DNA from: Candidatus Omnitrophota bacterium
GTDB taxonomy: Bacteria > Omnitrophota > Gorgyraeia > JABMRN01 > RBG-13-46-9
Direction: 5' to 3'
Length of the DNA: 64,000 bases
NCBI GenBank assembly: GCA_013203315.1
Contig: JABMQJ010000026.1
Location: forward strand, 32,001 to 96,000
Shown: positions 8,240 through 55,700 of the stretch, piece by piece
Numbering within the stretch: the stretch's first letter is position 1
Layout of the letters: each line of letters opens with the position of its first letter
Made by a program: the position numbers and the translations under genes
Notes under the pieces: model-generated
Told to the model about the DNA's origin: nothing
The model's database searches: none
What the model saw: only the letters and a program-made list of their open reading frames with translations

Positions 8240-8245
8240 GAGATT

Positions 8246-9118
8246 ATGAAGCGGTATATAGATAAATTTAAAAACTATCTGACTGTTGAGAAAAACTATT
8301 CCCCGCACACGATAAAAAACTATTTTATCGATTTAAACGAGTTCTCCGAGTTTCTGTCCGAAAGAAGCGTGCAGGATGTTGATTATCTTACGGTAAGGAA
8401 GTTTCTTGCGCATCTCCGACAGAGGCAAATTTCCAAGCGTTCGGTAGCAAGAAAACTATCCAGTCTCAGGACATTTTTTAAATTCCTACAAAGAGACGGA
8501 TATACGAAGAATAATCCCGTTGCAAGCGTATCAACGCCTAAATTGGACAAAAAATTACCTGTCTTTCTTGATGAGAAAAGCGCCTTAAAGCTCGTAACGG
8601 CGCCTAACAAGAATACCTTCCAGAGCGCAAGGGACAGGGCCATACTCGAAACGCTTTATAGTACAGGCATAAGGGTGGGCGAACTGGTAGGCATCGATAT
8701 CGATGACGTGGATATTATAAGCGGTGTAGTCAAAGTGTTGGGAAAAGGCCGAAAAGAGCGTATTGCGCCTTGCGGGGATAAAGCAATAAGCATTATCCGC
8801 GAATATTTAAAGTATAGAAACGTAAAAATAAGCCAGGATAAAAAAGCGCTCTTTTTAAATAAATCAGGGAAACGCTTATCAGACAGAAGCGTAAGGCGTA
8901 TCGTTGATAAATATATAAAAGATGTCGGAACTAAAGAACATATTTCGCCGCATACATTGCGCCATTCTTTTGCGACACATCTTTTAAATAGGGGAGCGGA
9001 TCTTCGTAGCGTACAGGAACTTTTGGGGCACAAGAACCTTTCGACCACGCAGATCTATACGCACGTAACGATGGAGCGCCTTAAATCAGTGTACGATAAG
9101 GCGCATCCCCGGGCATAA
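8246..9118 (+). CDS. xerC: Tyrosine recombinase XerC
   Basis: RDRAILETLYSTGIR, GKGRKER, HTLRHSFATHLL, LLGH, TTQIYTH. Conserved dprA-topA-xerC order. Confidence 0.88.
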   Translation: MKRYIDKFKNYLTVEKNYSPHTIKNYFIDLNEFSEFLSERSVQDVDYLTVRKFLAHLRQRQISKRSVARKLSSLRTFFKFLQRDGYTKNNPVASVSTPKLDKKLPVFLDEKSALKLVTAPNKNTFQSARDRAILETLYSTGIRVGELVGIDIDDVDIISGVVKVLGKGRKERIAPCGDKAISIIREYLKYRNVKISQDKKALFLNKSGKRLSDRSVRRIVDKYIKDVGTKEHISPHTLRHSFATHLLNRGADLRSVQELLGHKNLSTTQIYTHVTMERLKSVYDKAHPRA

Positions 9119-28691: not shown

Positions 28692-28780
28692 ATCTACGTG
28701 TTTTGAGTTTCGTATCTACGTCTTTTTTTATGTCCTGAAACTTAGGACATTTAAAAAGGGATAAATAAGGAGATCTACGT
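28692..28780 (+). promoter_or_regulatory. Structured leader of giant gene: 3x ATCTACGT, hairpin, SD
   Basis: ATCTACGT at 28692, 28714 and 28773. Hairpin atgtcct/aggacat at 28730-28750. AAGGAG at 28767-28772. Confidence 0.55.
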
Positions 28781-31700: not shown

Positions 31701-34700
31701 CTTCTTCATGACATAGGATATGCCGGATTGGAAGGCGCTAAGAAACAATTTGGAAAAGATAAAGTCGAAAAAGGTTATCATGCTGACTTAGGTGCGGCTA
31801 TGGCAAGGGATGACTTATCCGCTATTTTGCGGGAACTTTTTGGCATGGAAAGAGATGGGTCTCGGGAAGACAAAAGCGCGTTAGACGATTTCATAGATGC
31901 GATATTGCTGCACGGCGCGGATAAACGAAGTGTAGAAGAAGAAGGTCCTGAAGGTTCCGGCGAGCATAAGCATACACCGGCAAGCGAAACTAATAACCCT
32001 CTCCTCATGCTGGTGAGGTTAGCAGATAATCTGGATGTCTCCAGGGATAGGCTGAGAGGTTGGCAGAAGAATCCGTGGTTTATGAGAATACTTTATCACA
32101 TGGCGAACGATCAGGTTCTGCAGGATATTTCAGAAAGAAAGGACCTGACAAAAGACCAACGCGAAAACTTAATCAATGAAAGATTGAAATATCTAAGGGC
32201 AGAGGAGCTTAAAAAGCTGAAAAAAAGAAAAAAACTTGCCCAAAGAGTGCGGGAAAGTGGTGATACGGAAGCCATGGAAGAGTTCTGTAATGAGTTTCAG
32301 ATTGATCCGCAGACAGATCAAGAAATGATAATGCAATTATTGGAACAACTAACTAAGCCAGGCTCTGAACAGGAGTTTAAGAGAATTGAAGAAATGATTG
32401 GCAAAATGGATAACGAGGCATTCAAGCACTTTATAGGTGCCTTGGCTATCAGGGAACTTATATTGAGCGTAGATGAAGAAGGAAATTTAGCGATAAAAGC
32501 CATCGTTACGGACAGGGCAGACAATCCTATTTGGAGGGAGGCTGCCGAATTCCAGATAAATGGTAAAGGAAGAACCAATAATGCGCTAGAGTCACTTAGT
32601 ATAAACGGAAGAACTGTGAGAGTCCAAATCAGCTATGGAAAAAAGCAGTTGGAACTACCAATGCCAGGTGATCTCGGGAAACCAGTTGGTGCATTGGCCT
32701 CAGTTGCTGCATTGGCCATTGATGTAATGGAAGCGCAGAGCGTACTAGCTGTGCCGGGAGCCGAAGTGCATGTAGAAGACGTTACCCTGCCTGCAGCCAC
32801 GTCTGTAGTAGACGTTACCCCGCCTGCAGCTACGTCTGTTGTAGATACAACCCAAATCCAGCCTCAAATCGAGCTGGATGAAGCCAAGAAAGTATCTCCG
32901 TATTTAGCAAGAGTACTCCCCACATTAAGCCCAGAAATATTGAGCCAAAAAACCGGTATAAAAGCCGAGGTAGTAGACCTTGCCGGCACGCTACTTGGCA
33001 TAAGAGATTATCTTTTAATGAAAGAAGAAGGCAAAGAATTAGTCATGGCATGGATCCTGGAAGATAACGAGAGAAAACAGAAGATGATGGAAAAAGCCGG
33101 AGAAGATTATAAAGGAGACGGTTATGATTTAGTCTTGCAGGTAGCTGAAAAGCGTTTTGTAGATGGTAAGAGAGAAAAAGAAAGCGACAGGGCTGCTGCC
33201 AGACGCGTTGCATTAGGAATGGTGGCGCAGATTATAGCATACTACGGGAAGGAAAATATCGCTGCCCCCGGTGTCGAAAAAATAACAGCCAAAGCGCTGC
33301 AGGGTAAAATAAATAATGCCTTTACAAGGAGAGATAGGGCCAGACGCGAACAGCTTCTTGTAGAACACGGCATAGACATAGCGGAAAGTAATGCCCAGCT
33401 ATTAGTAACCACAAATACAATCGACTTGGAAGGAAGAATAGGCATATTAGGAAGGTTCGGCGTTACGGTTACCGCAGATCTTCTTTTATGCAGCGAAAAG
33501 TTATTGGAAACCAATATACCTATTATAATTGGGCATGACATAAAACCGGAAGATATAACCGCAGATCACGTTCATAACTTTCAAGATACGTTAAGAACAG
33601 AGCGCGAGGAAGATGTAAGACACATAGCGAGCTTAGGTGCTGACGAAGAAAATGCAGGGGCGCAAGCAACCGCGCGGCACGAGGCCGTTCAAGCAAAAAT
33701 AGACCGAGTGGATCGTGAGCGTGAGGCACTTGTGAGGAACTTAATATCTGCGCGTCAAAAAAAGCACAATACGCGCATGAAGGCAGAAGGCCAGAACCCG
33801 ATCGAAGGTACATACGAGGATATTGCGTTTCGCAGGGACGCGCTAGGAAAAGAAATTTTCGGCAAACTTTCCTCGCTTAAAGAGGAACTTGCACAGAATA
33901 TTCCGGAGGACGATGCAATAACAGCAATAAAGCAAGAACTGGAAGAGCTCAAAACAAGGGTAATAGAACTTGATAAGAGAAGAAGAGAAAGAAAAGGTAT
34001 TTCGAGAATACTTAATCTCGTAACCCGAATGATAATAGGAAGGCGTGTCCGTAGGATAGCTCGGCTGGAATTTGAACTAAACGAACGAATTCCGCAAGCC
34101 GCGCTCATGATTCAAAAGATAGATCTTTATGAAGCAGGATTGCTTCAGGCCGAGCCGCAGGATATAGGCATGTTGCGAAATGAAATCGAGAATGCCCTTT
34201 CTCGAAATGACGCCAAAGACTTCAAAAAGCTAGTAAGAGAATATCTGACAAAAACAAGGGTATTAAACGATATAGATAACGAGCTAGACAAATTTGAATC
34301 GGATCGAGAAAATCAGGTTGCCCACGAGGAACGATTCTACATGTATTGCCCGCAGTCTGTAAGGGACTATATAGAGGTAAGGCGCTCTGAGATAGCCGAG
34401 CTTAAGGCCAAGATAGATGCGCTTGACGCAAAAATAGAATCCGGAAGAACCGTGAAAGGATTCAGGAGAATCCTTAGAGGTCGTCGCTTTGGAATTTTGA
34501 CTTTGTTAACACGTGTTAGAAAATTATTTCATAAATTGCAGCTCAACAGATTAGAGGCACAGTCAACCCCGGAAGCGATTATTGCCAGGCTTTCCGAGGC
34601 TGCAAGGAGACACCTTGCATTCCAAACCAATGAATGGTCCAGATTCAACGGATTTTTAGGAGGTCTTGCGGATATTAACACGCTTGTCAAGGGAGGTATT

Positions 34701-37700
34701 CCGGTGATAGCAGACATGGCAGTTCGTCTTGTTTCAAGGGAGCGGCAAAAACCCCTTACACCGGAGGAAAGAAAAGAACTTGAAGACAAAATAGATGAAA
34801 GAGTAAGAGAACAATTAGGCATTGAAATCACCGATGACGAAATAAAAATAGATGGGAATGGCAAAATACAAAGCGAAATTGCATTATTTTTCGGAAGAAA
34901 CCTGAATTTAAAACCCGGCGCACAGCAGCCATCATTCCTGAGAGACTTCGTTTTTCTTACCGCTGTTAAATCCGGAAAATTCAGAATAAAAGATAAAGAT
35001 GGAAATGTCAAAGAAGTGAATCTTAGTAAAAGGTATGAAGCGCTTACCGGTGAAGAAAAACAAGCATTCGATAGCGAACTTGCCGAGATATGCCGCGGCG
35101 CAGAAGATGACCTGGTAAAATTAGCCATACACGATTTTCTTATACCATGGGCCGGAGAACGGCAACCCAATATAGTAGCTACGCTCTCTGCAAAAAGTGA
35201 AGAACTAATGAAGAGCCTCGAGGCGCGCAATGAAGCCATAATCGATCTTTTCGAAAAGAATTTGTTAGTTACAGATAAGGAAATGATAATACAAATGGAA
35301 GCGCCGAGCATACCCTGGAGAGATCTCGGCAGGGTAGCTGCTACCATTGCCGGTATTTCCCTTGTTGGGGGCATCATTGCAGCGACCGGGGGATGTGGTG
35401 CATCGCCAGTACTCAACCAGCCTGCCGTTGAACAAGCAGCGCAGCAAGCTGCGCAGCAAGTTGCAGAAGTACCGCAAGAACCAGCCTTGCCGCCGGCAGA
35501 GCCAACAAAAGCAACCGTACCTACCCCTGCGAAACAACCGGAAAAGCGTGTTACAAAACCTAAAGCAAAGACACCCAAAGCCGAAGTAGCAGAGGAACCC
35601 GAGGTAGAGAAACCCAAGGTATCGGAAGGATTAGATGCATTAGATGTATTATTGCCACAGGTACCGGGAGAAGGCGAATGGCTAGATAAATTAGTGCCAG
35701 AGGTAGAACCGGGAGCAGCGATACCTAGAGCAAGAGTGCCAGAGATGGTAGAGCTGTCCGTGCGAGACTTCCATGAGAGCCTGTATGGTTTCCCACGGGA
35801 TCAAGCCGACGGACTTAAAGACACTCATTTAACACGCGATGATTTGAAGAATATCTTTTCAAGGCTTAGCGGAAGTGTCGGACATAATCAGTCGTGGGAA
35901 GGTGCGCTTAGTCAAACAACAATACATATGAACGGAGTTTTAAGATGGCTTCGTGATAACAACATAAAACCTGAACAAATTCCTATGCTCTGGAGCCGCA
36001 TTCCGCGCACAATGCTTACAGGCGACCAAGCGCATACGATAGACCAATTAAGCCCCGGATTTTTGGAAGTATTGGGCCTTGCAATGAGCTTTTACGCAAA
36101 CGATATTGCAAGCCCCGCAAATATTGAGGAACGCGGAGGAAGAGCGCTTTTGGCGCAAAAAAGAAGCGAAATATTACGCGACCTGAAAAATTATATAGCA
36201 GGCGGAAACATTATTGCGAAGCCGGGTTCGCGTGCCGCACGCTTTGAAAATATCCCCGAATCACGCCGAAGGCTTGAACTTGGGTGGAATAAATTTGTGA
36301 CTAATAGCCTTGGATCGATAGATGCCGCAACTATGACTCTTTCCGATTCAAAGGACTTAAGAAGTGAACAGGAAAAGTTATCCCCGGCGCTTGATATTAT
36401 ACTTGGACGACCGGTGAACCTTAGGAGTAAAGTTGATAGAAACCTACTGCAGACCCTCGCTTCCTTTGCAAAACTTAACGGAATTAAAGCAGAGGACATG
36501 ACCTTGCTTATAAAAGCCGGTATGCCATTAGGACAGCTTGTACCACTATTTCATAGTTCGGCTACAATATCAGAACAACAAAGAATCCAAGCCAATATGA
36601 CCCAAGAAGAGATCAGCAGAACACATGCCCGCCATAATGCAATAGCGCTTAGCCGAGCTCGCCAAAAACATATAGCAAGGCTAGATAAGGCCAACCAAAG
36701 ATTCCAGAGAAGAATGAGTACTCTTGAATCTCAAGGTCTTACAGGCCCACGAACAGAATACGTGCAGAGACAATTAGCAGACTTACAAAGCCAAATAGAT
36801 GCTCAGCAAACTCTCTTAGGTTATTGGATAGAAGCAGATAATTCCAAGTATTACTTCGAGAGGGAAATAAAAGAGAGTACAACATCACCTGGGGACATCA
36901 GGCAAGAAATCGATGGAACCATAGCCGCAAGCAACAGCATAATATTGTTAAACGAACATTTAAATAATTTCCTTAGCATAATAAAGGCGACGTTCGAGAA
37001 TCTCCGTCCGGGCGAGAGCTTGAGCGATATACTTGCCGAGGGAGATACGGCGCAACTCGCTAGGCTCGGACGTGAAGCTTATGCGGTAAGAGCAAATTTT
37101 GCAACTATGTACGAGGTCATTTCAAGAGTCGCTGACCAATACGAGAACCCGCTAGCAAGCGCACTTTACTTTGCCTCCCAGAACGGGAAGGCTTTTCCGG
37201 GCACATATGTTGATGAAAATGGTGCTAGAAAAAAACTGGCTTATTTTGTGGAAAAAGACGGCCAGCGCCCGATCATAAAAGTTATTTATGACAATGAGCC
37301 GGAACCGCGCAGGACCTATGTAGACTGCGAATTTGATGAAAGAGAATGGCGAAATATAGAGGCGTCGGTAAAAGGTGAACGTGACCCCAACCCTACCAGG
37401 GATATTAACGATCCAACCAAGCCCGGTAAGCTTCTTGAAAAATTAGGTCCCGCTATGGAAATAGAAGAAGGCATAGAGGGAATTCCCGAACCCGTAATCG
37501 GCTTACCCGGGGGTATAGGCGACTTGGGCGTGACTGGTGAAGATCTCTTACAGCCCGCGACACAACCCAAAGTGCAAACCGAAGCTGAAAAAGCGGAAGA
37601 AGCCCGTCTGGAAAAGGTGAAGGGAGAGATTGCAACTAACTTTGACCTAGCAAATAAGGCACTGGATGGGGCAACTGAGGCCCTTAACGCGGATAACCTC

Positions 37701-40700
37701 GAAAAAGCGGACGACGAAATAGAAAAAGCAAAGGCTTTATACGATAGACTTGTAAGATATTCCTTCCGGAATGAGCCGGTAAAGCCCGGGGACCTTAAGG
37801 CGCTAAAAAACAGGATATCCGAAGCCGAGACTCAGCGGAAGGAAAGCCGGATATATAAGAGAGTACAAAAGCTTGAAAAAAGGTTATCTAGAATCTCAAT
37901 AACCATAGAAAACATACGTAGAAACGCGAATAAATTTGAAAATGAAACGGACTATAAACGCGCGAAAGATATAATTGACGGCATATTCGCTTCTTTAAAG
38001 AAAGAATTTTCCACCGGGGAATTGGAGTATAAAAAACAAGAAATAGATGCCTTAAAAGTGGAGTCCCGGCTCGCCGATAGTTTTGCCAGGGCATTTTTAT
38101 TATTCAAGAAAGCAAAACAGGATCAAGCAAAATTCGATGCCCAAAGGGAAGAAGCAAAGCGTAAGTACGAGGCGATAAAGGAAAAAATAACCAACGCCCC
38201 GCGACTTCAGGGACTTCCCCTTGCCCGGGGAATGGTGCACGTATTTCTGCATGGCAACGGCAGCCCCAGCCTCGCGCGATTTTTTAACAGAAACAAACCG
38301 AGGCACGGAAGATTTGACGAAGGCGATGTTATTGTAAGTGATACACCGGTACCCGATCATCTTAAGGGTAAGAATGTGGAATGGTATCGTTATAAAATAA
38401 GTTTCCTCAGGAAAGAAAAAATTCCCCTTAAGTCCGGCGATCCCAAAGCGACCCATGTTTCGGTAGACGGAAAAGAGTACTCGGTATATGGCCCTGTTTA
38501 CATGGTATTGGAAAAGATAGAAAAAGGCAAAAAAACTATAAGGGTAGCGAACGATACAATTGATTTGATGAAGCTTGTAGGCACAGGGTATACACTTAAT
38601 GATGAAAATGGAAATCCGCTGTTCTCAGAAGCCGTAGTAAAACTCGCCAAGGACAACGACTACGATGCGGCTGCGATACAATGGAATATAGATTTATCGA
38701 GACAGAGACACGAAGGCATACGCCAGGCGAAAGAGAACTCAGAGGAGCATGTGGTAAGACTGATACTCGATTCCTGGCAGGCCCATGCGGAAAATCTTGA
38801 GATTGAAGAAGCGTGGGCGGAAATGCTTCGCACAATGTCCGAGGGCACAAAGGTTGAACTGGGCATATCAATAGGGGCCTATACAAAGTCGCTTCCATTT
38901 GTGTCGGTGTGGGCCGGTATTACCAGGATCATAGATAAAAGAAGAGATGCTTATGTCAGCCAGGGTTTCTGGAAATATTATGTTAAGATTCAAGAGGTTA
39001 AGAATAGACAGGTTAAGCGGGTAAGCAGGGCCCTCGCGGACCTGACTGAACTGGGAGAAGTAAGGGCCGAATTGACACGCCTCAAAGGCGATGAAACGAA
39101 TTATAAAAATCTCCTGAAGAAAGAAAGGGACAAAAAATCTCAAAGGGCAATAAGGGCCAGGCTGGCTTCTATCGGCGCAGAAATAGCAGGGCTCCAGGCC
39201 CGCGACAGCGAGTTAAGCGAAGGCGTTCTTACTGAAATGGGCGAAAAGCTTAAGATAGATGAGATAGTAATCGATCCTAATAGACGTCTGAGGAAATGGC
39301 AGATTAACCGGATTCTTGCTCAATATGGGGTAGACGCGGGCACGGTTTATCCTGTTATGCGCGCATACTATCTCAAAAAATGGGCTGAGGCCAAACAAAA
39401 AGAAGCAGAAGCAGGAAAAACACCTGTATATACCTCTAAATCCATCGTAAGCGGTTCTGCCAGCGCCGCCGGTTTTTATGGCGGCATATTCGCGAGCATG
39501 GATGCCAAATTCGTAGATAAGGAACTGACCCCGGCAGTGGCTGATGTAATAAAACTACGGCAGGATGTAAATGCCAATTGGACGGCATACAATTCGCAGC
39601 AGAAAAAGAAAAAACTCGAAGTCATTTCTAAGGCGATAGACGAAGTTATAGATGCCTCGAATAGGAAAATCAAGAATCTGGCAGAGCGCAAAGCCGATGC
39701 GGAGAAGAAATACAAAAAAGGACTTTTAACCTTTGGACAATACGACGAGGCGCTTATAAAACTGAGGGAAGCAGAAAAGGAACACTCCGCTATAGTAACG
39801 CAGGGAAGCGCAATACAATACGATTTATGGATGCTTCATGACGGCCTTGACAGACAGCTGGGAGACGCCGTTAAGCTCAAGAGAGAAAAAGGCGCAATAA
39901 CCGCAAGTAAGTTCATGGAAGATGTGCTCAAAACATCCCGCGAGATTGGCGCCGGCAAAATGGCAGATGTAGATGTGCTGGAACATACCCGGCGCTTGAA
40001 GGAAGGGAAGGATAAAGGCGTAGTTACAATTGAAGGCGTTGGTGGCTTTGTAAGCACCGGCTCGGACGGAAAAGGTATTTCCTTGGGCGCGGGGGCATCA
40101 ACAACCCTTAAAATCGATACCTCGCGGGAACAGAAATTAGATATATTGGCAGATACCCTTCTTATATCTGAATTAAGAAAAGAAGCAACGGAAGAAGACG
40201 CGGCCATTAATGCCTTAAACGCACTCATTAGTTATAGGGGTATAAAGAAACAGACAGAATACGCGACCGCAGGGAAGAAGCATTACGAGGACTATAAAAA
40301 AGGCGCCGGCACACGAGAAGAAAAAGCCGAAGCCGAAGGATATCTGGCTGACGCGGTTCTTAATTTGAGAGGAGCCGAGCGATGGCTGACATCCGCAATG
40401 AGAGAGGCAATCACGTTAAGAGGCGGAGATTTTGCGAATGTTACGGATATAGATGACCCCACTGTATTATCCGGTATTATAGCCGAACTAAAGGTGAATC
40501 GTTATAAAAGAGAACTTGAGATATTAGACCTGCAGAAGAAAATTATAGAGGCCATGGCCACAATAATAGCCAAAGGAGATTCGTTCTCCCTGGCTTTAGG
40601 CCTTGCCTACGCGGTTCAATCAGATGGTGGTTCCACGCTGCAGACGATCGGATTTAACATACAAATGGAATCGAATATATTCGGTCCGTTCTTACCCCTT

Positions 40701-43700
40701 ATTATCGGTAACCCGGAAAAAATAGATTTAGAACTAGCGGAAAAACTCTACCAGGAAAAGCGAGCCAAAATACAGGCCGAAGCTAAGGCGAGCGATGAAA
40801 AAATTGACAGCCTGGAAGTCCGGGTAACCATAGCTAGGCAAGCTGTCGATAGTGCTAAAAAGGCTCTTACAGAAGAAAAAGAGGCGAAGAAAAAAGCCCT
40901 TAGGCTAGCCGAACTCGAAAAAGCGAAAAGTAACTTACAAAGCGCGCAAACTGATCTCGAACTGGAAGAACTCCAAGCGCAGGCATATAAAGGTGTCCAG
41001 CGTGTGCCGAGAGAGGAAGGGATTTCAGTAAAAGAGGCGGAAAAATTAAGGCTAAGGTTGGCAGAAGCAAAGCGAAAGGCGGATGTCATAGATGAAGAAA
41101 CTGGAAGGGTGGAGCCACAAGAGGCAAGGGAAAGAGAAGCTAGGGTCAGCGGTGCTGTTAATTTTAGAATTGTCCTCCTCGACCCAAGGAAGCCGGATAC
41201 GTCTGAATATGATATCGAAGCCCTTAGAGAAGAATCCAGAGAAAAAGTCGAAGAAGGATTAAAAAATTATAAAACTCTTAAAGTTCAAGCCGCACGATAT
41301 GGTGTAGAGCTGGCGTGGCTGAATTATCTTAGGGCAATAGCGGTAAAACAGTTAAATCAATTCAAAGGCGACCTTCCGGCGTTAAAGCCGTTTGACAATG
41401 AAGAGACCAGTAGAATGAGGAGATTTACAAAATTTGTATCGGAATTAGATGCCAAAATTGCTAATATTGACGGAAAATTGGAAGAAACGGAAAAACAGAT
41501 TCCCTACGCGGGCGATGCGATTGGCGTGGTATACGTGGGCGACAAGATTGCCATAATAGTAGAAACCAAGCCCAACGGGAAAGAAGCAATAAGAGAGCTG
41601 AAGAAAATAAGTGAAAAAGATCGCGCCGCCGTATTGAAAGAGATAGAAGACCGGGACCCTGAACTGAGGCGGTTGAAAGCCCTTCGCGCACAAGCCCAAA
41701 AAATGCACGAGGCCACAGAGCCCCAACTGGGTTTTCTACCCGTTATTGATTTAAAGGGCATGTCTGGCATACCTATAACAGGCGCCCAGCTTGACCTTAC
41801 ATGGACTCTTTTCGATTCCGGGCTTAACGAGGCCAATAGGTTACTGGCGTGGATAAAATTAGTAAGGCAGGACCTATTAATTAAAGTGGAAGAAAACAAA
41901 AAGTACAACAGTCTTATTTTAGCCCTGGATCAACTTGAGAAGAAGACTTTGCGTTTAAAGAAGGCTGCAACGGCTAGAATGCGCTATCTCGGTTACATGG
42001 ATGAGAACGGTAAGTTCGTTCCGGGTTTATTGACAGATGTCATAGAATCGTTGGACAATCAGAATACGAATTTGGATGAAGTTAGAAGAATTTTCCGAGA
42101 GTCGCAGGACGCGGTAAGCGAAAATGCCGAAGCCGCTTTTGAAAGTTTAGCCGCCGTAGAAAATTTTATCGTTTCTTTAGAAGTAATAGGTGTTGATCCC
42201 GCAAAATATCTTAAAAAGCCAAAAAAATTATCAAAACCGGCCATAGAACCTGCGCAGCCGACGACTACTAGGCCGAGCGTTGCGCCGGCGGTGAGTGAAT
42301 ACAAAGTTCCCACCCAAAAGGTGCAAGATAAGGACATAAAAGACGAGATAGGGATTCTTATAGAGGCATCCGGCATGAGTGAACGAGCGGCCGTATTTGC
42401 GGTAATATCTGCTAAACGATTTGTCGAGATGAACCGTAATATAGTTAACGTGCAGGGCCGTGAGCCATGGACGTCTAAATTACACTTTATAGGGATGTCA
42501 GAATACGCCAGAAAAATAGCACGGAAAATGGCAGAAGATCCGGGCTTCAAAATTCCTGATCACCTCGGCTTCAGAAGCATCTATGATTTATCTACTACAA
42601 TGGAGGAATCGGGACAAGTTAACGACCCAAAGACAGGCATTTATCCGGGCCTGTTCAACCTGCTTGGCCTGGCACATTATATGCAATGCTACGAAGATAG
42701 ATTTGGTAAAGAGAAAGCCACGGCCCATTTTAATGAGGTTATAGCTAAAATTAAAGGTCCAAGGGATGAAGGATGGGAGATAGGGATACAGAAAAGATTA
42801 GCGGAACTTGGCCTTGGAAAAACAGAAGAGGAGATGCATGCAGGCAGGGTTGCCCTTTCCGGTATAGCCGGTAGAGCTGTCGGCAGAGACCTTAACGTTC
42901 ACACGAACCTTCATGACATGGGTATTGCGGGCAGGTTCTACAATTTCGGCCTTTTGCAACACTTAAATCCGGGGCAACTTGATGCTATGGTAGATGTTAT
43001 GCGGGAACTACGGTCGTTCCTTAACAGTATATTCGATAATTATGGGGACATGACGAATGACGAATTATCAAAACAGCAGGGTTCCTACAGGCTGAGATTG
43101 AACAGTGAAAGATTGAAGACGCTTACTCCCGGAACGCCGGAATATAAACATGTTGAGATGCTCGTAGAAAGGGCAAGAAATGCGCTCATAGAAGAATTAG
43201 AACTCGACCGTCTCTTCAGCGCCGCCAGGGCAATATTAGAGCAGAGCGGCAAGGTGCTGAAGAATATGTCGAAGAAGGACATACAGGCAATTCTCAAGAC
43301 CACGATTAGAAGCAAGGCGTGGCGTGACTCCCTGCAAGATAATATAATTCCACGAATGAAAGGTGAAGACGGCAAGTTCCTAAGCGATTACGAAAATCCT
43401 TTATTTGACGCACTTAACTTTTCCGATAGTCGCGGAAAAGCCTACCCGGGCAAGGACGCAAAAGGAAAACGCGTAACTTATTTTGTGGAAAGGATGAAAA
43501 TCGATGGAAAAGGAAAATTACAGCCGGTTGTAAAAATTATCTACGCTGGCGAGCAAGAACCGCACAAAATCTATATAGGCCACTTTGACAAAGAAGCATG
43601 GTTAAAGGGAGACGCGTTGCCTATTCTGGACTTGGAAGGGAACAAGCCAACAAAGCCCGTCATAGAATTAGGTCCCGCTATAGAAGTAGAAAAAGGCATA

Positions 43701-46700
43701 GAGGCGGTTCCCGAACCCGAACCCGGAATCGGCCCACGCGGGGCGATAGGTCTCTTGGGCGAGGCTGACGAAGTCGAGAAAAAGTTGCTAAGTGAAACCG
43801 GAAGACGCGAGTATGTGCCGTTGTCCGCAGCCGGAATGAAGGGTCTCCTGGCGGTATACCAGCGTGACGAAAAAACGGGCGTACGCGGTATGCGGATAGG
43901 AACCGTAAAAAATCTAAAGCTAAATGAAAAAGGAGAAGTCATAGGTGGGGATATTGTTGAGAAGAAATCGCTAAGTGAAACCGGAATACGCGAGTATGTG
44001 CCCCTGTCCATAGAAGGTATGGAGGGCTTCCTGGCAGTATACCAACATGACAAAGAAACGGGTGTACGCGGCGAACGAATAGGAACTGTAAAAAATCCAA
44101 AGATAAATGAAAAAGGAGAAGTCATAGGCGGAGATATTGTTGATAGAAGAAGAACCGCTACAATTGGCTCACGCGAATACGTAATTGCAAGAGTTGAAGA
44201 TGGAAATGATATACCGGAAAGCCTAGCATACCTTCCTGGAGACATGAAGGATGTAGTGCTTGTGTATTCCGGATATGACGAAAACCAGCCGATAGGATAC
44301 GCTGAAAGCGGTAAGATCAGCTTCAACGAAGACGGAACAGCCACGTTAAGCGATGATGTCATAATTATGAGGACAGCCCGGGTGCCGTTTACAGGTGAAC
44401 TTGGGGCAGTAGGCCACCTTTATGCAAATGGAGAATATTACAATCTTCGTAAGGGCGAAGTTCATGGTTTTGACGGAAAATATACTGCGAAATTATACAA
44501 AATCAAAGAATTCGAAAAAGAACGTGTAGAAATAAGATTTACAAGTACCTCGAAACATCCACGTCATGATTCGGCCAGAGAATCTATCGTATTGGTCCAG
44601 GACATGGAAACAGGCCTACCTATCCGTGAAGAAAATGTGCCACTGGTGATACGCGATGGAAAACAAGCTTATGTTGTTTACGGGACAATACACTTTTTCA
44701 ATTGCAATGAAGAAGGAAGGCCGCAGTACGTGGAACTACGATTATCAGACGGCAAATTCCATGATGGCGTGTCAACGCGCAAGGCTAAAACAATACGATC
44801 AATGGAATGCGAATACAGAGAAGACGGAACGCGTGTCAATACCCGATGGACATACGGAAAAGGAAAAGAGTGGTGGAAGAACAAAATCTTCCAGCGTGGA
44901 GTAGAAGCCGTTGTGGCCCCGGCAACTCGCATGAAAGGCGTATCGGTTGTCACGCTTGCTCAAGTAAGGTGGAAAAATGCATGGTGGAAAACCCAGGCAA
45001 GTTTTGGAAGTGGGATAATAAAGTTAACAGAGCCATTATCCCAAACCGACAGAGGGTGGGAGGCATGGCAGTCAGAGTTTGACGTTGAAATGCAGGATGC
45101 CGGACATTCCACCGCACCGATGGGAAGTGCTCAACAAGCTGCCCCCCATGACGATAATTGGAAAGATATGACTAAATTACCGCCGCAACCCCGCACCGCA
45201 ATAACTCCGAATAGTATTGCAGGAGAGGTCTACGAGATAAATAAGGTGATCGAAAAGCACCATCCCAATCTCATGAAAAGGCTTAATCAACATTTGTCGC
45301 AAGAAAATTGGAACGAATTCTGGGCTGATATATGCGAGATACACCGATTAAACGTATGGCCTGCCAGGGTCCACCTTGAAGGCGTTGCGCACTATCTCGA
45401 TCTTCTTTTAACTGAAATCGAAGAAGAAGGAGGAGACGTAACTCTTCTTTTCAGTGACCTCGAATTGGCAACGATTACATTTAAGGATAGAAAGCTTCGG
45501 GGAGTACTTGCAGCAGGAACAAGAGGAACTGACCCAGCGTTAGGCGAGGGATTGGATATTTTGATAAATGTTTTAAAAATTGCAGATAACCTAAAAAGCC
45601 GCGAAGATTCAATACTTTATATGAGTGAGTGGGAGATGAAGGCGCTTGGCGCCGAAACCAAAGAAGGAATAGTCACAGCAAGGCTTCGCATTTTCCTAAA
45701 ATTTCTTACAGACTATAAAAACGGAAAAATGACCAAGAGAGATTTTGAATACGAACTAAAAATCGTGAACAACACAATTCACGAGTACGCAGTCCGGCAT
45801 AATAGAGATGAACAACGCCAGGGAATAAGAGCTATCAAACCACTGCTGAAAAAACTTTATCCGGGACAGGAAAGATTGGATGAAGAGATCAACGTGTATG
45901 AAGCATCCGCGAATATGCTCTACTGGTTTATGGTAATGCTGGACCTCTCGCCGAAAAAAGTCGAACAACTTATGCCGCTACTTTCCAAGTTAAAAGCACG
46001 CCTCAATGAGTCATTGTTGGAATATGATGAATCTTTTGTGGAAATATTATTATACATAGCGTCTTTCAGGATATCCGGACCGAAGACTTACGAAGCTGAC
46101 CGCCTCTTCCGGGCCAAGTTACAAGCACGCCTCAATGAGTCATTGTTGAAATATGATGAATCTTATATGCCAACATTATTAAACATAGCGTCTTTCAGGA
46201 TATCCGGACGCCACACAACTAATAGAGGTATCGCGAGGGCTTACGAAATTGACCGCCTCTTCTGGGCGTTGATAGCACTGGTAGAGAATACCACTGACAC
46301 GGAAATCGCAGACCTTACCACGGAAGAAATCGAAGATATGATGAATAAAACAATCAACAATGATAGATGGATAGAATACTTTAATATGGCAATCGATGTT
46401 CAGATAAAAAATGACACGATGCCCGATGTGTTTAAGTCAGCTTATTATGCAAGTGCGTCTCAGAGGCCACCCGCAAAGATAGCACGAATAAGAGAAGATG
46501 TACCTACAAAAAGTGACACACACTATCTGAGCATAACCTATATACCAGGCTCTGAAATAAAAGAATCCAACGTAAAAGCCTATACCGTATCCGAAGATGC
46601 AGATGGGAAGCAGGAGATGATGAAGTTTATTATAAAGAAGGATGCAGAGGGCCACCCGATAGTAGAGCTTTTTAAGGGTGGCGAAAGCGATCCCAGCCAG

Positions 46701-49700
46701 GTTTGGGAAGGCGTATTCGATGTGAATGAATGGCTTGTAGGATCTGAGCTGGAAGAATGCATTACAATAGACGGGAAACCCGGCAAGCTTTTAGAGACAT
46801 TAGAAGAGGCAGAGGTCATCGAAGAACTAGGAGAAGAGGGTGTGCCGGCGCTTCCCGCTCCAGAAGTTCCTGGACCCGCAGTCGGCGAACGCGGGCCAAT
46901 AGGTGCCTTGGGCGCAACTAAACCGGCAGAAAAAGTATTGGCAACAACGCCGGATGGAACAAAAAAGTTCGTCCAGCGTCCGGATGGCAGTGTATGGCTA
47001 GTGGCGAAAGGAGACCCGAATCATCTTGAGATGTCTAGAGGAAAGACGCAAGCATGGGCGGACAGGAAAAATGCGCCACCCGAACCTCGCAGTGATATAA
47101 ACCCGGAAACGATAAGCGAGGAAGTAAGCGGAAAAACGGAATCTATCGCTGCAACGCTTGAAAAATATTACCCGGAAGAAATGAAAGCGCTTTCCGAAGT
47201 TATTACGCCGAAACAGTGGAACGAAATGTGGGCAGAAGTTTGCGAAGTTCATAGGCTAACCCCTAGAGGGGCCAAGGAGCATTTAGAGCGCGTAAATTAT
47301 TGGTTGAATGAAATTCTTAAATGGGAAGAAAATAATGGTGTAAAAATTGACATTCCGGAGGATATGTACTCGCTTCTTTACGCCATTCGGCCGCTAAAAA
47401 ATGAGGTATGGCCCATAGAGAAGGCGCTTCCCGGGTTACTGCGAAAATTGACCTATGTCGATTTTATGGCATCATTGGAAAAGCATAGGTTGTTATTTGA
47501 TGCCCCGGTTCTGAAGCTAGCCGACGCAACAGTCAGGAAAGATCTTCGGGAGGTTTTCGTTCGTTTCTTCAAGATACTAAAGGACCATCAGAAAGGGAAG
47601 CATGACAAGAGTGCCATTTTAAGATTTAGAAGGGAAATAGATGATAGAAACGCAGTGATTGTTGATCTCGCATTACGGCATAATACCGGGGAGCAGCTAA
47701 CTGGTGAGACCGCTGCGCTTGAAAAAATCTCAAAACTTTTCCCGGAGTGGAAACTAAAGTATGGAGTGAGCCAGAAGGGTTTTCACGACTCTCATATATT
47801 GTTTTCATTTTACATGTTTATGGTAACCCAGGACCTTTCATCCGGTAAGATCGATGAGCTTATGCCTTTATTGCAGGCGCTGAAACCTTTTCTTAATGAT
47901 TCCTTCGGCGAATACAAAGACATGGAATTAGGTAAGTTGCTAAAAACGCCGCGTGGCTTCGATCTTGACGGGGTTATACAAGTGTGGAAAACTCTGGGTG
48001 AGGACTTAAAGAAGCTTTGGGGCGGCGAGGTGCATAAGCAAATGCTTAGAGGCCTTGAACTTGACCGTCTCTTTGAGGCAGCACGGCTAATAGTAGAATA
48101 TCACAGCGGGGGAAAAAGGATAAAGGATTTATCAGGAAAAGAGATACAAGAGATTCTAAAACAGACGCTCGGGAAGAAAGGCTACACGGGATTTCTTGCC
48201 AGGGTAATTAATATTCAAAAGAAGAACGGCCTTACCCCGGACATGCATAAATCAATTGATTGCGCGAATACACGCAAGACACCGCCACAAGCCGAAACGG
48301 TGACAAGAAAAGACCTCCCCGGAAAACTACCGGGAGGAAAATATTACCTGAGCACGACCTACGAAAGCGGCTACAGGACCCCGGAGGAATATACCTTATA
48401 TAAAGATGCGGAAGGAGAGACAAAGATAATAACATTTTCTCTAAGAAAAGACGGAACTGTTAGGATAATATACGGCAATGATGAGGCGGCTTCGCAAGTT
48501 TGGAAGGGCAAATTTAATAAGAATGCGTGGTTACAAGGAAAGGCTTTAAAAGATTGCATTACAATAGACGGCGAAAAAGGCCAGCTTTTAGAGGAATTAG
48601 GTAAGCCAGAAGATGTGGAAAAAGGTATAAAACTAGAAGAGCCTGCGGTGCCCACGCCCACGCCTGCGCCCGGAATAAGTGAACAGGTACTTGGACGTGC
48701 AACTCAAGGCGCAAAGAGCGCAGTTGCAGGCACCGGTTCACCTTTGACGAATTTTGTGATGATCGTAGGTATGAGTGCGATAGGCGTTGTAACCGACTCT
48801 CAACAAGCACAAGAGCCCCCAGCGCAAGTGGCGCAAGTGGCACCGGCGAAGTCGGCGCAACCGGCGAAAAAGGCGGCGACGCCGCCGGCGCAAGCGAAAA
48901 AGCCGACAACGCAGAAGGCACAAACACAACCCGCAGCGAAACTGAAACCTGCTGAAAAAGCTAATCTACTCATGAACTACAGTGGGCCAGATGGAAAAGA
49001 TTCATACGGCCGTAATGCCGGAGAAAATTTCTGGGGACATGTTGGCATAAGCGATCCTATACAGGCAGAAAAAACAAGAAAAGCTTTTCGACACATGAAA
49101 AAGCTGGGCATCGACTCCGTGAGAATGGGATTAGTAGCCGATGGCCGCTCACTAATGGACGAAAATGGAAAGGTTGACCCCCAAAAACTTAATAAGTTCA
49201 TGGAGGACGTAGAGGCTTTACTTAAAATTGCAGAGGAACAAGAAATCCAAATAGAAATAGAATTTTCCCTTATCGACCATCTTATAGCGTATAAGGGCAG
49301 AATAGATAACGGCGTCCCAATTTTTGGTAGGGATGAAGTAATAAAAGACGCTGCAGGATTTGTTAAAGACTTCCTGACACCATTCCTTCAGAAATTCGGG
49401 AAACATAAGGCGATAAAAGGAATCGACATTATAAACGAACCGGAATGGATCTGGATTAATACCCCCGTTACAAAGGACAAGGTAAAACAATTTATAAGAA
49501 TATGTTCGAAAGCCATAAGGAAATGGGCTCCGGGTAAAACCATAACAGTCGGTGTTAATACCGAGTATACCGGAGAAATGGCCGCATTAGTTCGCGAAGG
49601 CGTGCTGGACTACGTAGCCATTCACCACTATGAGGATAGGTTCAGAAGGAAAAAAGCCGACGGCACATTCGAGAAAGATAATTTCGCGACATTAGAACGC

Positions 49701-52700
49701 TTCGTAAAGGCACTTAGCGTGCCTGAGGCACAAAGAGTGGCATGGGCAATCGAAGAATCCCAGATAAGAGAAGAAGATATCCCTCGGGTTCTGGAAATCA
49801 TTAATAAGTATAACGGAAAGATAATCGGAATTTGGGGATGGAATGATAGTGACAAGAGAAGCCTTAACCCGGCAACGCGCGGTCCCTTACTTAACAAACT
49901 GCAACAGCTTAGAAAAGAACTACCTGTGCCGCCTACTGTGACACCGCCCATGCATACCGTAGAAATGACGAAGGCGGTTAGCGAATTAGACCCCGGAAAA
50001 GCGCCGAACGAACCTGTTTCCCCTCTAACAGCACCCAAGATTGTGCGCCCGTCCAAAAAAGACATTAACCGGGTCCGCGTGCGCAAGAAAAAAGACGAAG
50101 ACGGAAAAATTAGCGAATCCTATAGATATGAAAAACGAACGAGAGATCACGAAGACCCCAGAAAGCGCAAACACAGCAAAATTCTTGATATCGGCGTTGG
50201 AGAAGTAGAAAGAACGGAAATTCCCAGAGCAGGCGTCGACCTTATTTATATAATACAGTTTGACCCTTTAACAACAGAAATAGTACGCATGGAGTTATGG
50301 CGCGGGAAGTTAAAGGTAGAAGACAAAGGGAAGGTAATAAGCTACTTACCTGAAGGAGACCTTGAGCCCATGCTCGTAGAGTACGCGGAATTCGAATACA
50401 ATCCTGACAAGACAGTAACGATGCGCCTCGCAAGGCGCGATGTTCTGGGAGGCGAAGAAAACTACATAGAGGAATACGTATTTAAAAAAGTAAAATTCGA
50501 GGATGGCAAAATAAACATAATGGTTTCGAAGACTGTCTATGACAAAAGCCTCGTAGAAAAAGCTACGGTAATTACGCAGATTGACAGGAATGAAAAAACC
50601 GGCGAAATAACAGAAAGGGAATGGATACAGTGGCAGGGCCAAGAACTGCAGAAGTCATCGATGACTGTCTACGCCTCTCACATAGATAAAACGGGCTTCT
50701 TGGTATGGGAAAGGCAAAGACGCAGAGACTTTGGCACCGGTGCGTGGTTAGAGACATTACGCAAAAAGGTTAAAGGGCAGAAAATAGAAATTGAGAAAGG
50801 TAAAAATAAAAAGGGCGCGTATTATGATGGCAAGGGAGGAAAAAGCCGCATTTACTATGCAGATGGCGGTAGGTGGGTTAGCATGGAAGACGGCGTTTCC
50901 GCTGCGGCCGAAATTAAGAAAGGCCAGAAGAGAGATAAGCCGTTCGACCCTATAAAAATCGGTTATACCGAAGCCATAGATATAGAAGGCAAAAAACATG
51001 TATTATATGAAGCCGACACCGAGATAGAGAACAACGCAAAGTTTGACCACAAAAATAATACACTTACATTACCTGAGGAGATTACCGTTGATGGCAAAGA
51101 CTTTAAAATCCCCGATGCCGCGCGAACTTACAAACTCCCTGCTAAACTACCTGGCGATAGGGCGATATATAAATTCCATGTAAAGAGGGAATACGACAGC
51201 GAGAAGAATAAAGTGTTAACTACCCAAGTAGAGTGGGTAGTAAGGGATGAGGCGGAAAAGCTGATCTACAAGGTTACAAAGAATTTGATAACGGGCGAGA
51301 CAGAAGTTTATGAACTTCATCCCGAGATGAAGATGGAAATAACCGAATTGGAACTTGAAGCAAAACCGGGCGAACATCATGACCAGACACATAAAGATGT
51401 TTCGGAAGGGACATTTTACGACGAAAAGGGTAGAGAAAAGGGAAAAGTATATCACAGAATGGTTTTTGACCCCAGGTACAGGGATAAAGACAAATGGCGT
51501 TTCCTGCAGGAAAGAGGAAAAATAGTCGAAGAGAAGGTGCGTGATGTCGAGAACAACAGGGAAATCACCGTGCTTTATAGCATAACAGAAACGATAGAGT
51601 TCAAAGAAGATGGTTCGCAGGTCGTGAGAAAGGTAAAAGTATCCGTAGATGAAAATTATAAACCCGATGGCAGGGTTCGAGAGGAGCTCATTGTAAAAAA
51701 GGATAAATATGGCAGGATCAAACAGGTTGATGGGGAACCGGATAAATTTGGCATACGCGACGGGCTTACTACTCAGGGTGTTAAGGATGTCGGAAAAAAG
51801 ACAGAATCCCGCTTTACCCCGCAAACGTATAAATTTGTGCCGGTTACGAAACCGGGGCAGGAGTTGCCGGGGTTAATTACGGATAATAAGGGTGTGCAAA
51901 AGGAATATGTGCTCGCGACTACAGGACGCGATTCTAAAGGTAAATTAGTTCTAAATTTCAAAAAAACCGATAAACGCTTCGGTTACACCCAAGTTGTGGT
52001 GCCCGAAGGCGCAAGATGGGTTACAGAGACTAAGGAAGATGTAATAAGGGATGAAAAAACAGGGAAAGAGATTACAAAGAAACAAGTGGTATTTGGCCTC
52101 TACGACGCCCATGGGAAACCTTTATATCAGGATATAGCTACTAAATACGGTGATAACGGAATAGTCCACCAGGTTTTGGTTTATAACCCCACTGATAGCA
52201 CGATGGCAGAATACGCCACCTACAGAAAAAATTGGCAGGATAAAGAAACACTCATGCTGAAAAAAGTTTCACAACTCCTGCGCTATCGCAACTCCGAACT
52301 GATCGATCAGTGGTTACTATTATACGAAGAATCATATCTAAAAGGATTTGTAAGGGAATACACATATGATATGCAAAGGGCCCTTAGCGGCGCTTTTGGC
52401 GGCATGCAACCCCTCACGAGTAAAAAATGGAAACTAAACAAAGACGGTTCGCGCGGCGAATTGACAGAGCACATGGCATTTCTTTACTATGGGCCGACAG
52501 GGCAGCGCCTGATTGTAGATATGCGTGACAGGAGAGACGACAACGGAAACCTCATAGATCACGAAACGCCGTTGGCAGCGGGTCAGGCAGTGACGGGCCT
52601 TGTTACCCCGTTTGCAATAGGGGAAGAATTCGAAACAGAAGAGTGGAATACAAAGATTGTAGAGCGTCCGGACGGAACGCTATGGATTGACACTTCACAA

Positions 52701-55700
52701 GGCGACCTTCTCACTTACAGGGTGTCCGCAAACGACGAGTTTTATCTCACGGTTCACTTAACAAGAAACCCTGAAACAGGAGAATATACGGTACGAAACG
52801 TATTTAAAGGTAAACCTGTTTCCGAATTCTACAGCGTTTATGGAAATAGAAGAATAAAGGAATATACAGAGCTTGACCGAAGGTGCGTAACTGTAAACTC
52901 CGAAACAGGCAGATGCGAAGTGTCTGAAGAAACAGGCGTGGTAATTCTCACGAATCCGGAAACTGGTAAAGCACTGGATACCGAAAATCCGAAGGACATA
53001 AGATTGCTCGAAAAAAACATGTTCTTAAGCGATTCGGCAAATCCCGATTTCTCTTACACCATACCTTTAAAAGGCCCTGATTTCGAAAATGGATATTTCT
53101 ACCTGAATAAGAAACTAAAAGGAAAAAGCATACCGCTTCTAAGATTAAGACTACGACGCGGCAAAACATTTGATGACTTACTTCGAAACGCACAGACCTC
53201 GGTCTCTGATAAAGCAGACGCCGAGTTGACTACAATAGATCCGAGAGATGCGGTGTTAGATGCCGTTTACGCTTCCTCTGAAGGCGTAACATATCGTGGT
53301 ACAGGACTTACTGTTGTATTTTCAATCATGAATATCGGAAAAGCCATCGGAGAAGGCCAGGAAATAAACATGGTTCCGATTCTGAACGAAAAAACAGGTG
53401 AAATCGATGAAGCGCGCGGCACGAGATTTGTCGTGAGGAAAGGCTCCGAAAAGATATTAGATCTGGATACTAATCTCGATAAAGTACCCCCTTCGATGCG
53501 TAAGATTAAAACCATTGGCGGCACGCCTGCTTCGAAATTTACGGGTACTATTAAATGCCGGGTAGAGGAGCAGGTCCATTGGAAAAAAGTGTCGGTAACA
53601 CCCGAGAACCGGGAATCTCTATCTGAAGAAATAGGAGAACCGGGTAAGTTAGGCCTACCAGGCGCAGAAGGGCCGATCGGTGCAAAAGAAATAACACCTC
53701 AGCCGGGAATGAAACTGACAGATAAAGATACAGATATCATCGTGAAAAAGTATTTTGATAAAGATGACAACTTCCTAAGGAATAAAACAGCTTTCGGAAT
53801 AGGTACAAACAAAGCAGCTAAGGATCTCGTTTTGGGAGCGCTCGGAAATTTAGAAAATTCCGACCCAGTATTTAATAAAAATGCAGGAAGCGATATATTA
53901 GATCTTCTTTACACAATCGCAAGGAAAAATAACTTAAATCAAGAAGAGTTACGACGTCTCATCGATGAGAAACTGATACCTTTAACCGATCTCGCCGTAA
54001 CAGGATTTAAGAATTTAGATATTCAAAGCATCGAAGGACTAACAAAGGATGATTACATAAACTTGAGTACTAACGAGAACGCAATGGCCCTCGGTGTACT
54101 TATTTATTGGGCAAGCAATCGCGATGAGAAGTTTAATTTTGACGAATTCTACGATGCATTTAATGAACTGTGCACATATCCAGAAGGGGACAAAGACAAG
54201 CAGGGCTTGAAAGACGCGCTACTATCATATTTCGATACAAGACTTAACTTGGCAGCAGCGGAGAACAAGGTCAAAGTCGACGAATTGTCAGAGGCTAAAA
54301 GATTTGGCATCTTCGTGGATGTCATGTCATCTTTTGCTAATCAAAAGGTTGCATTAGAAGAAGGACGTTTGTCTGGGGAAAGGTTTATAGAAGGGTTGGG
54401 TTTAGACGAACTTGGACTGGAACCGGGAGAAACACTTCCGCCGCGCATTATGAAATTATTCATTGAAGCAGAAGAAAAAAGGCTTCAAGGCGTACCCTAT
54501 GCTGAGGTGCAGGAGGAATTAGAAGAAAAGCTAAGCCCGGGTATCGGGACTCCGCTATTAGACGGTTTAAAGACAATTTGGAGCTTTGTTCCATATGTAA
54601 TGGGTCTTATGAGTGCTTTAATAGCAGCATTAATTGCAATTATTATTAGGAGACGTCTCCCACCGAGATTTAGGCCGGGTTCGTTAATGTCGCAGCTTAG
54701 GCCGCGCGCGTTACTGAGTCTAGGACGCTCGTTACTAAGTCTATCATTCAGGGGACTACGTCGTGCCGGTAAATGGATAGGGCTTCCCTTGGTTCTGGTA
54801 CTCTTAGTAGCAGGCGAATCATTCGGCGCCCCCGTTGGTGCGGATCAAGTTTTAACTCTTGTCGATGGCGGTCCAAGTTTTTTTTCAAGCCTTTGGGCCG
54901 CTGTTCCAAGTCTAATCTCATGGTGGGGTGTTTTTTATGCCTATTGCGCATTTACTATAGGTAGAGGGTTATATAGGGCTATTATTTCAGATAGAAGTTA
55001 TGTAGATCGAGGCACTCGCCACTTTGTAAGGCCTGCGACAGCTAGCAGAGAGTCTCTAACACTAGGTTCTCTTCACCAGTCGATTTCTGACATTGACGCA
55101 ACGGGTATGACAAAAGTAGAATTCCTGGCAGCAATAGAAGATGCCATGAGTGATCAAGACTTTAATGATGAATTCAACCGTATTTTTGATAGAGAAACCG
55201 CAGATATATTGCAAGGTGAAGGTATTCTTGAAAATATAAATAACAATGATGGCGTGGGAGCGAAACAAACCTTGCTTAATGAAGTCATGTGGAGAGAGGT
55301 AGGGACTTCTATAAGCCACATGCAAGGAGCTATGTGGGATATACACAGAACCCTCGAGCCTTCTAGAACCGGGACTACTGGCAAGAATAGGTATGTTCCT
55401 GTATATAGATTTTCAATCTCTACGTTTTTAGCATTTCTTGCAGGCAGCGGTCTTTTGCTTGCGAATTTTTTGAAAGCAGGCGCCACAGGTTGGTCCATGG
55501 GTTACGGCCCGGGCATGTGGATAGCAGGAGGTCTCCTACTTCTTGTTGCCGCTATAAACGGATATAGGTTCATATGGGATGTAGTCATGCGCATACTTGA
55601 CGGGATTCCTCGTATTGGTGCTTTCGCAAGGCGCCGTCGGTTAGCGCTTGAAGTAATGGAGAATGAGTTAAGCGCTTTGAGGGAGTACTACAACCAGCTC

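Follow-up and report, generated by a model that had tools for sequence, protein, structure and literature searches.

In bacterial lipoprotein signal peptides, a positively charged n-region, an uncharged helix and small residues precede a cysteine that is followed by a disordered linker, and this cysteine lies within the first ~35 residues of the precursor. Here we analyse a segment of the same anatomy that lies deep inside a giant protein. The protein is encoded in a 64,000-nucleotide stretch of DNA from a Candidatus Omnitrophota bacterium (contig JABMQJ010000026.1, positions 32,001 to 96,000, forward strand; hereafter the window), in a single stop-free open reading frame (ORF). Its cysteine is residue 2,206 of this continuous ORF, behind a Sec signal and 2,100 residues of domains and not at the N-terminus of a precursor, and a product cut there would, unlike an ordinary lipoprotein, stay anchored by later helices. 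In a preliminary description of the window, four hydrophobic segments of this protein had been interpreted as internal signal peptides of a polyprotein that is cut by signal peptidases. All four were recovered at their positions in the one 16,610-aa frame; we number them segments 1 to 4.

Single ORFs with internal start-transfer signals encode the polyproteins of flavi-, pesti- and bunyaviruses, and their order of signals matches that of segments 3 and 4. Each internal signal of a viral polyprotein follows a stop-transfer helix, which is true for the segment 3/4 pair but false for segment 1, and the viral signals are cut by a type I, not a type II, signal peptidase. The actinobacterial Rieske proteins, which depend on both Sec and Tat, likewise contain an internal export signal inside a membrane protein; theirs, unlike segment 1 as we read it, follows an even number of helices and remains uncut. 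Our literature search yielded no paper on an internal lipobox or similar, and the internal-signal polyproteins in the accessible texts were viral and eukaryotic cases only.

Giant proteins of Omnitrophota have been described in two preprints (10.1101/2023.11.21.568195; 10.64898/2026.06.07.730766). As far as their accessible text goes, the protein studied here resembles these giants in phylum, in its length of >10,000 aa, and in its many helices, few domains and glycan-active modules. The available portion of West-Roberts et al. (2023, bioRxiv 10.1101/2023.11.21.568195) proposes C39 or S8 peptidases as cutters, treats single-chain versus cut giants as an open question and calls some predicted localisations unlikely. 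The corresponding portion of 10.64898/2026.06.07.730766 ascribes signal-peptide calls on later chunks to chunking artefacts. Lipoproteins and lipoboxes are not mentioned in the accessible main texts of both preprints and of Seymour et al. (2023), whose supplements may bear on the matter.

Segment 1 and the lipoprotein-type signals of the family

We tentatively favour an explanation in which all four segments serve a single giant envelope protein as topology signals, with processing of the signal peptidase II (SPase II) type at segment 1. The likeness of segment 1 to a lipoprotein signal, pointed out in the preliminary description, is borne out by its flanking charge, its uncharged helix, the enzymes encoded in the genome and a family-wide excess of lipoboxes. 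Behind two arginines of the n-region, R2181 and R2185, lies an uncharged run of 20 residues that ends in the TGG of the lipobox TGGC. This motif had been regarded as non-canonical: it does lack a Leu at -3, but it passes the broad lipobox pattern, which we take to be that of PROSITE PS51257, and it resembles AGGC, TTGC and TSGC among the genome's own N-terminal lipoboxes. Lgt (PF01790, 221 bits) and LspA (PF01252, 136 bits) are encoded side by side on contig C14, and the genome also encodes a type I signal peptidase.

The region around segment 1 is rare, with three relatives among 41 near genomes and two among 401 genomes of the phylum. In all five homologous sequences, the present one included, a hydrophobic helix stands at the same junction, with Lys/Arg before and a low-complexity linker after it; the linkers behind the helix in G003, G020 and P0002 are similar to that of the giant protein (G000 denotes the giant protein and genome of this window, other G numbers the genomes of relatives, and L numbers loci). 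The cysteine is conserved in part: it directly follows the helix in three of the five sequences (G000, P0002 and G007, the last with LNGC) and is absent from G003 and G020. The helix of P0002 is identical at 21 of 22 positions, the protein being 55% identical overall. When aa 1901-2700 were compared with 1.84 billion representative proteins, four matches appeared, none a complete separate gene: one partial giant, two fragments on contigs of 580 bp and 536 bp, and one spurious repeat protein. An antisense ORF of 362 aa (34529-35617, minus strand) overlaps segment 1; it probably exists only as a side effect of the long frame on the sense strand.

A helix passed our lipobox test when a Lys/Arg preceded 14-24 uncharged residues and these led into a lipobox of the broad class. 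In the remaining ORFs of the genome with a length of at least 250 aa, the test was passed by 16 of 1,030 internal helices. Given this background and the ~40 helices of the giant protein, one lipobox is expected by chance; segment 1 alone thus proves nothing, and the excess is visible only across the family that shares its N-terminal domain, not within the giant protein. A survey of other giants for internal lipoboxes had been proposed at the outset, and it revealed such an excess on first helices, i.e. the first behind the N-terminal domain. It comprised 89 proteins, 80 of them picked by ORF length among the 150 matches listed, with 482 further matches outside. The first sample consisted of 40 ORFs (34 of >5,600 aa and six of 4,162-4,698 aa, up to 20 kb of each) and nine further proteins; a helix follows the N-terminal domain in 47 of these 49, and 6/47 first helices carry a lipobox versus 5/477 later helices (p=1.2e-4). 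Together with a hold-out sample of 40 ORFs of 2,505-4,319 aa, 16 of them without a helix, the counts rise to 8/71 first versus 6/566 later helices (p=2.8e-5). They stand at 6/69 versus 6/566 (p=7e-4) after removal of the two cases that had prompted the test, and at 7/43 versus 6/410 when only charge-free helices are considered.

The signals found in the survey read LLAGC, LLTGC, FIAGC, FAAGC and SIGC, that of L112 is of Tat type, and Ser/Gly/Thr/Pro-rich linkers follow all of them. In one homologous group of three proteins with 29-41% identity, the lipobox is kept in all three while the helix sequence drifts. A crude test for A-x-A gave no enrichment on first helices (3/43, versus 30/410 later ones), and Pfam searches of the regions around five other buried signals returned nothing informative. 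A candidate junction motif, R-[SA]-E-x-R, does not occur in the giant protein; it was counted 21 times in 94 proteins, with 24 expected, and stands upstream of none of 13 lipobox helices. Segment 1 is a member of a recurrent class of buried lipoprotein-type signals, which is unlikely to reflect chance. In locus L112 (G051:C26), aa 865-884 of a 4,049-aa ORF combine the twin-arginine motif SRRTFL with an LTGC lipobox behind the N-terminal domain. L065 (G236:C4) has two successive lipoprotein-type signals, at Cys 823 and at Cys 1607; the stretch that separates them is free of helices, as are the ~4,000 residues that follow.

The anatomy, the conservation pattern, the presence of the enzymes and the lipobox excess are observations; the membrane sidedness of each part and every processing step we infer as follows. 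Segment 1 would be an internal start-transfer signal (N-in/C-out) of lipoprotein type and would open an exported stretch of ~6,400 aa in which the TolC-like and GH5-like parts lie together with paralogous modules. This stretch would end at segment 3, a stop-transfer helix whose Arg-rich tail stays cytoplasmic, segment 4 and the helix at aa 8700-8720 would begin a multi-pass module carrying the GT2 domain, and segment 2 would be a weakly hydrophobic relic, probably not membrane-spanning. In this lineage, Lgt would lipidate Cys2206 and LspA would cut before it, so that the first 2,205 residues would be detached from a remainder anchored by its lipid. Of the SPase II/I processing proposed initially, cutting by LspA at segment 1 is plausible, if not quite an even prospect, and the SPase I part found no support.

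Membrane topology and alternative explanations

Counts of Lys/Arg before and after the helices are 2/0 for segment 1, 1/5 for segment 3 and 4/0 for segment 4. By these counts, segments 1 and 4 would be N-in and segment 3 N-out. The types of domain fit this sidedness, with HD before segment 1, the OEP-like and GH5-like parts between segments 1 and 3, and GT2 after. The two segments bracket 6,399 aa, close to the ~6,390 aa estimated before, and both the OEP and the GH5 match lie inside. The stop-transfer character ascribed to segment 3 agrees with its charges and with its relatives, as a helix followed by a Lys/Arg cluster occupies this position in 7/7 of them; a domain just upstream (aa 8150-8530) is conserved in seven other genomes out of 401.

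Segment 4 had been taken for a cleaved Sec signal. It does possess an n-region, an h-region and an S-F-G motif with small residues at -3 and -1, yet the next helix begins 14 residues later, and equivalents of segment 4 and this third helix occur only in G258 and G144, two of the seven relatives. The other five (G003, G290, G293, G308 and G289) have a soluble stretch at this position, and no cleavage motif is common to segment 4 and its equivalents in G258 and G144. The most fitting description of segment 4 is that of helix two in a membrane module of three, and none of the tests made here, the A-x-A comparison included, identifies it as a cleaved signal. The helix at aa 8700-8720, like the ~35 helices downstream of it and of segments 1-4, was missing from the first description of the region.

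Segment 2 had been described as a relic. It is indeed a weak hydrophobic stretch with a short core; it has no plausible cleavage site, and no equivalent exists in the collinear relative G003, which lacks any helix between its counterparts of segments 1 and 3. Since G003 keeps homologues of aa 2944-5049 and 7143-8395, the regions on either side of segment 2, in such a helix-free stretch, both halves should lie on one side of the membrane and segment 2 should not span it. We consider it weak and probably non-spanning.

The absence of a clear transmembrane helix between the N-terminal signal and segment 1, raised as a caveat from the start, proved correct and extends to a family-wide conflict: no helix of the giant protein exceeds a Kyte-Doolittle value of 1.6 between aa 76 and 2185, and first helices of the family are N-in by flanking charge in 25 clean cases, N-out in nine and tied in nine (p=0.009), compared with 153 versus 199 for later helices. 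Two consecutive start-transfer signals are incompatible in one uncut chain, and the picture must therefore be partly wrong or incomplete. Either the N-terminal part is separated, or one of the signals is unused, or the simple rules fail. Under strict alternation of all helices, every scheme considered put some of the modules that G000 and G003 share on opposite sides of the membrane. The clash between the N-terminal signal peptide and the N-in helix that follows it suggests a gap in the understanding of how these proteins are oriented.

Several points weigh against processing at segment 1. The canonical N-terminal Sec signal is followed by no strong helix before segment 1, and segment 3 would keep a product cut at Cys2206 in the membrane, which leaves lipidation with no obvious effect on release. 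In G003 and G020, which lack the cysteine, the helix must be an uncut anchor; the lipobox of G007 has Asn at -2; and the single lipobox within the giant protein equals the chance expectation. In the survey, the eight first-helix lipoboxes represent ~6 independent groups, some being homologous, and the hold-out sample alone is not significant (2/24 versus 1/89, p=0.11). Finally, all topology calls come from a simple TopPred-like script based on hydropathy and flanking charge, and not from a trained predictor.

All four segments could be ordinary, uncut transmembrane anchors, with a full-length chain that works as such and a cysteine that plays no part in processing, and we regard this as a serious possibility, though not a probable one. 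The loss of the cysteine in two relatives, the chance level of lipoboxes per protein and the lack of A-x-A enrichment all fit it. So do the hydrophobic runs at the segment 1 position, which measure 17-23 aa in four lineages, the length of a helix rather than of a short signal core, and the conserved triple formed by segments 3, 4 and the helix at 8700-8720. Proteins of this type are handled as single chains, with a signal peptide and transmembrane helices or with the latter only, in the accessible text of 10.64898/2026.06.07.730766. What uncut anchors leave unexplained is that canonical lipoboxes are in roughly ten-fold excess on first helices, that L112 has a Tat-plus-lipobox signal and that the first helix is N-in although it comes directly after an N-terminal signal peptide.

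A further reading concerns the whole Omnitrophota class: its giant envelope proteins would be true bacterial polyproteins, in which a Sec-exported, hydrolase-like N-terminal domain becomes separated, perhaps by its own activity, and the buried Sec or Tat lipoprotein signal re-targets the remainder, which Lgt and LspA would lipidate and cut. We think this rather unlikely. If true, it would turn signal peptidase II into a polyprotein-processing enzyme, and the rule that lipoprotein signals are N-terminal only would fail in this phylum. The buried canonical lipoboxes offer exact candidate cut sites (Gly/Cys), known enzymes and a known inhibitor, globomycin. Should these sites be used, the literature searched contains no earlier bacterial polyprotein whose maturation depends on signal peptidase II; should they be unused, signal predictors applied to giant proteins chunk by chunk will mistake anchors for signal peptides.

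Genes for lipoproteins or secreted proteins might also have been captured in frame by module shuffling, so that their former signals now serve as mere anchors or linkers. Module shuffling itself is apparent from sequence comparison, with the GH5 module relocated in the collinear G003 and a different downstream order in G020; segment 2 looks decayed, and both G000 and G308_7014 (MRGIMRG...) have ATG codons shortly before the signal. Capture nevertheless seems improbable to us. No free-standing homologue starting at these signals appeared among the 1.84 billion representatives or, for segment 2 with GH5, among proteins of 275-875 aa, longer and shorter ones lying outside that search. The lipobox kept throughout one divergent group and the helix of P0002, which is better conserved than its flanks, do not look like relics. 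Internal translation starts do not explain the signals in general: only about half of nine buried lipobox signals have an ATG, GTG or TTG in frame within the 25 codons before them, and no consistent ribosome-binding site precedes them.

The full polyprotein first proposed, with SPase II acting at segment 1, SPase I at both the N-terminal signal and segment 4 and perhaps also at segment 2, and several subunits released, is very improbable, as neither the flavivirus-like order of stop-transfer helix, positive loop and short signal in segments 3/4, nor the 14-aa core and small -3 and -1 residues of segment 4, nor the same arrangement with a lipobox in L076 offsets the absence of segment 4 from five of seven relatives, its motif unlike those of G258 and G144, the helix 14 aa after it, the A-x-A result and a segment 2 with neither a cleavage site nor a G003 counterpart.

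Gene structure, shared domains and neighbouring genes

The giant ORF lies in a genome of 1.5 Mb in 32 contigs, and a ribosome-binding site (AAGGAG) is found 8-11 nt 5' of its GTG/ATG start. Separate assemblies of three public metagenome runs yielded contigs that bridge all four segments with zero differences; these runs belong to one study and may be the source samples. Among the runs listed for this DNA, none is of RNA. The features discussed here are listed in Table 1.

Table 1. Position of the giant ORF and of its features in the window; residue = (nt-28779)/3+1, a slash marks a potential cleavage position
Feature	Position	Strand	Residues (aa)	Characteristics
Giant ORF	28779..64000, continues past window end	+	16,610 in all	Single stop-free frame
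N-terminal Sec-type signal peptide	28947..29012	+		Lys/Arg-rich n-region, 13-aa core, DITWA/QGG
Shared N-terminal domain	29016..30638	+	~80-620	Alignment A1; EreA/ChaN/Tiki-like predicted fold
HD phosphohydrolase domain	31578..32036	+	934-1086	Pfam HD, 31 bits (cut-off 22); upstream of segment 1
Segment 1	35316..35396	+	2186-2205 (helix)	WRDLGR, 20-aa uncharged helix, then Cys2206 (codon 35394); lipobox TGGC
P/A/Q/K/E low-complexity linker	35397..35648	+		Directly after Cys2206
TolC/OEP-like stretch	39981..40319	+	3735-3847	Pfam OEP, 31.9 bits (cut-off 22), over one partial repeat
Segment 2	48735..48791	+	6653-6671	Kyte-Doolittle 1.55, 13-aa core, then Q/A/P/K linker
GH5-like domain	49071..49586	+	6765-6936	Pfam Cellulase, 28.8 bits (cut-off 23.5)
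Segment 3	54585..54656	+	8603-8623	Followed by RRR; strongest helix of the region
Arg-rich loop between segments 3 and 4	54657..54773	+		~11 Lys/Arg in 42 aa; predicted cytoplasmic (positive-inside)
Segment 4	54774..54830	+	8666-8684	Short N-in helix, 14-aa hydrophobic core, then ESFG/A
Third helix of module	54876..54938	+	8700-8720	N-out type, ~14 residues after segment 4

The suggestion that the gene is an operon written as one ORF could not be upheld. Collinear relatives keep a single ORF, and no relative is split at the positions of the segments. Nor is the gene a chain of giant genes joined end to end, since the protein has a single N-terminal domain, with which it starts, and a single C-terminal domain, with which it ends. 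When split partners were looked for, 7 of 12 parsed loci contained a recognisable mid-size gene with the N-terminal domain, and the genes downstream of it were unrelated. An apparent split in G293 is a run of N (G293:C3, ~30218-30384); the G293 ORFs of 2,661 and 9,459 aa share the same repeat and are probably one gene of ~12,000 aa. Look-ups in the ESM Atlas gave no usable match, and V. archaeovorus LiM, for which proteomics have been published, is not represented among the 80 related loci retrieved.

At the other end of the giant protein, a conserved C-terminal domain with an end motif (aa 16328-16605 of G000, L001) is common to the C-termini of G144, G258, G293 and G308. In members of 1,256-1,914 aa, the whole protein is made up of signal peptide, N-terminal domain and this C-terminal end. 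These short members and the shared ends indicate that each giant ORF is one evolutionary unit, in which modules were inserted between fixed ends.

The first ~600 residues are the best-conserved part of the giant protein, with 28-51% identity among nine relatives. The same signal-peptide anatomy recurs in 9/9 aligned relatives, with sites such as xWA/Q, SFA/M and VFA/A. A profile of the N-terminal domain finds matches in 217 of the 401 phylum genomes, often several per genome, and the domain heads ORFs of 500 to 14,309 aa, including ORFs of ~530 aa. H93, E121 and H488 are invariant in alignment A1. The AF2 model of the domain (pLDDT 71) is nearest to structures of HopBA1, the erythromycin esterase EreC, two EreA-like proteins and ChaN (5t09, 6xcq, 2rad, 2qgm and 2g5g, Z 8.2-9.2), which we take to form one superfamily together with the Tiki and TraB proteases. 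The next unrelated fold has a Z of 7.6, the Foldseek E-values are 0.2 or worse, and Pfam gives no match; a sequence search of aa 76-700 against the PDB found no match below E=0.18. In the accessible text of the two giant-protein preprints and Seymour et al. (2023), this domain is not mentioned.

Few domains of the giant protein are recognised by Pfam, and aa 2788-6617 consist of paralogous modules. Long, TolC-like helical hairpins are found mid-chain at 39576-41078 (aa 3600-4100). The AF2 model of the OEP-like stretch is weak (pLDDT 62); TolC-family channels make up 13 of the first 20 Foldseek rows, none with E<=0.001, and a sequence search of aa 3500-4299 against the PDB gave no match below E=0.18. 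Beyond the Pfam match, these models hint only weakly at a TolC-like fold. The GH5-like module is homologous (E=3e-13) to aa 1856-2051 of G003:C95 (L010), where it is placed elsewhere, between two strong helices. Near aa 9930-10040 a weak Pfam GT2 match coincides with a QQRARW motif, and cytidine deaminase and GDPD domains were detected by Pfam further toward the C-terminus.

Two more long ORFs neighbour the giant gene on its contig (C25), outside the window: one of 5,926 aa at the contig start and one of 2,813 aa from 112070, which begins with the family's shared N-terminal domain.

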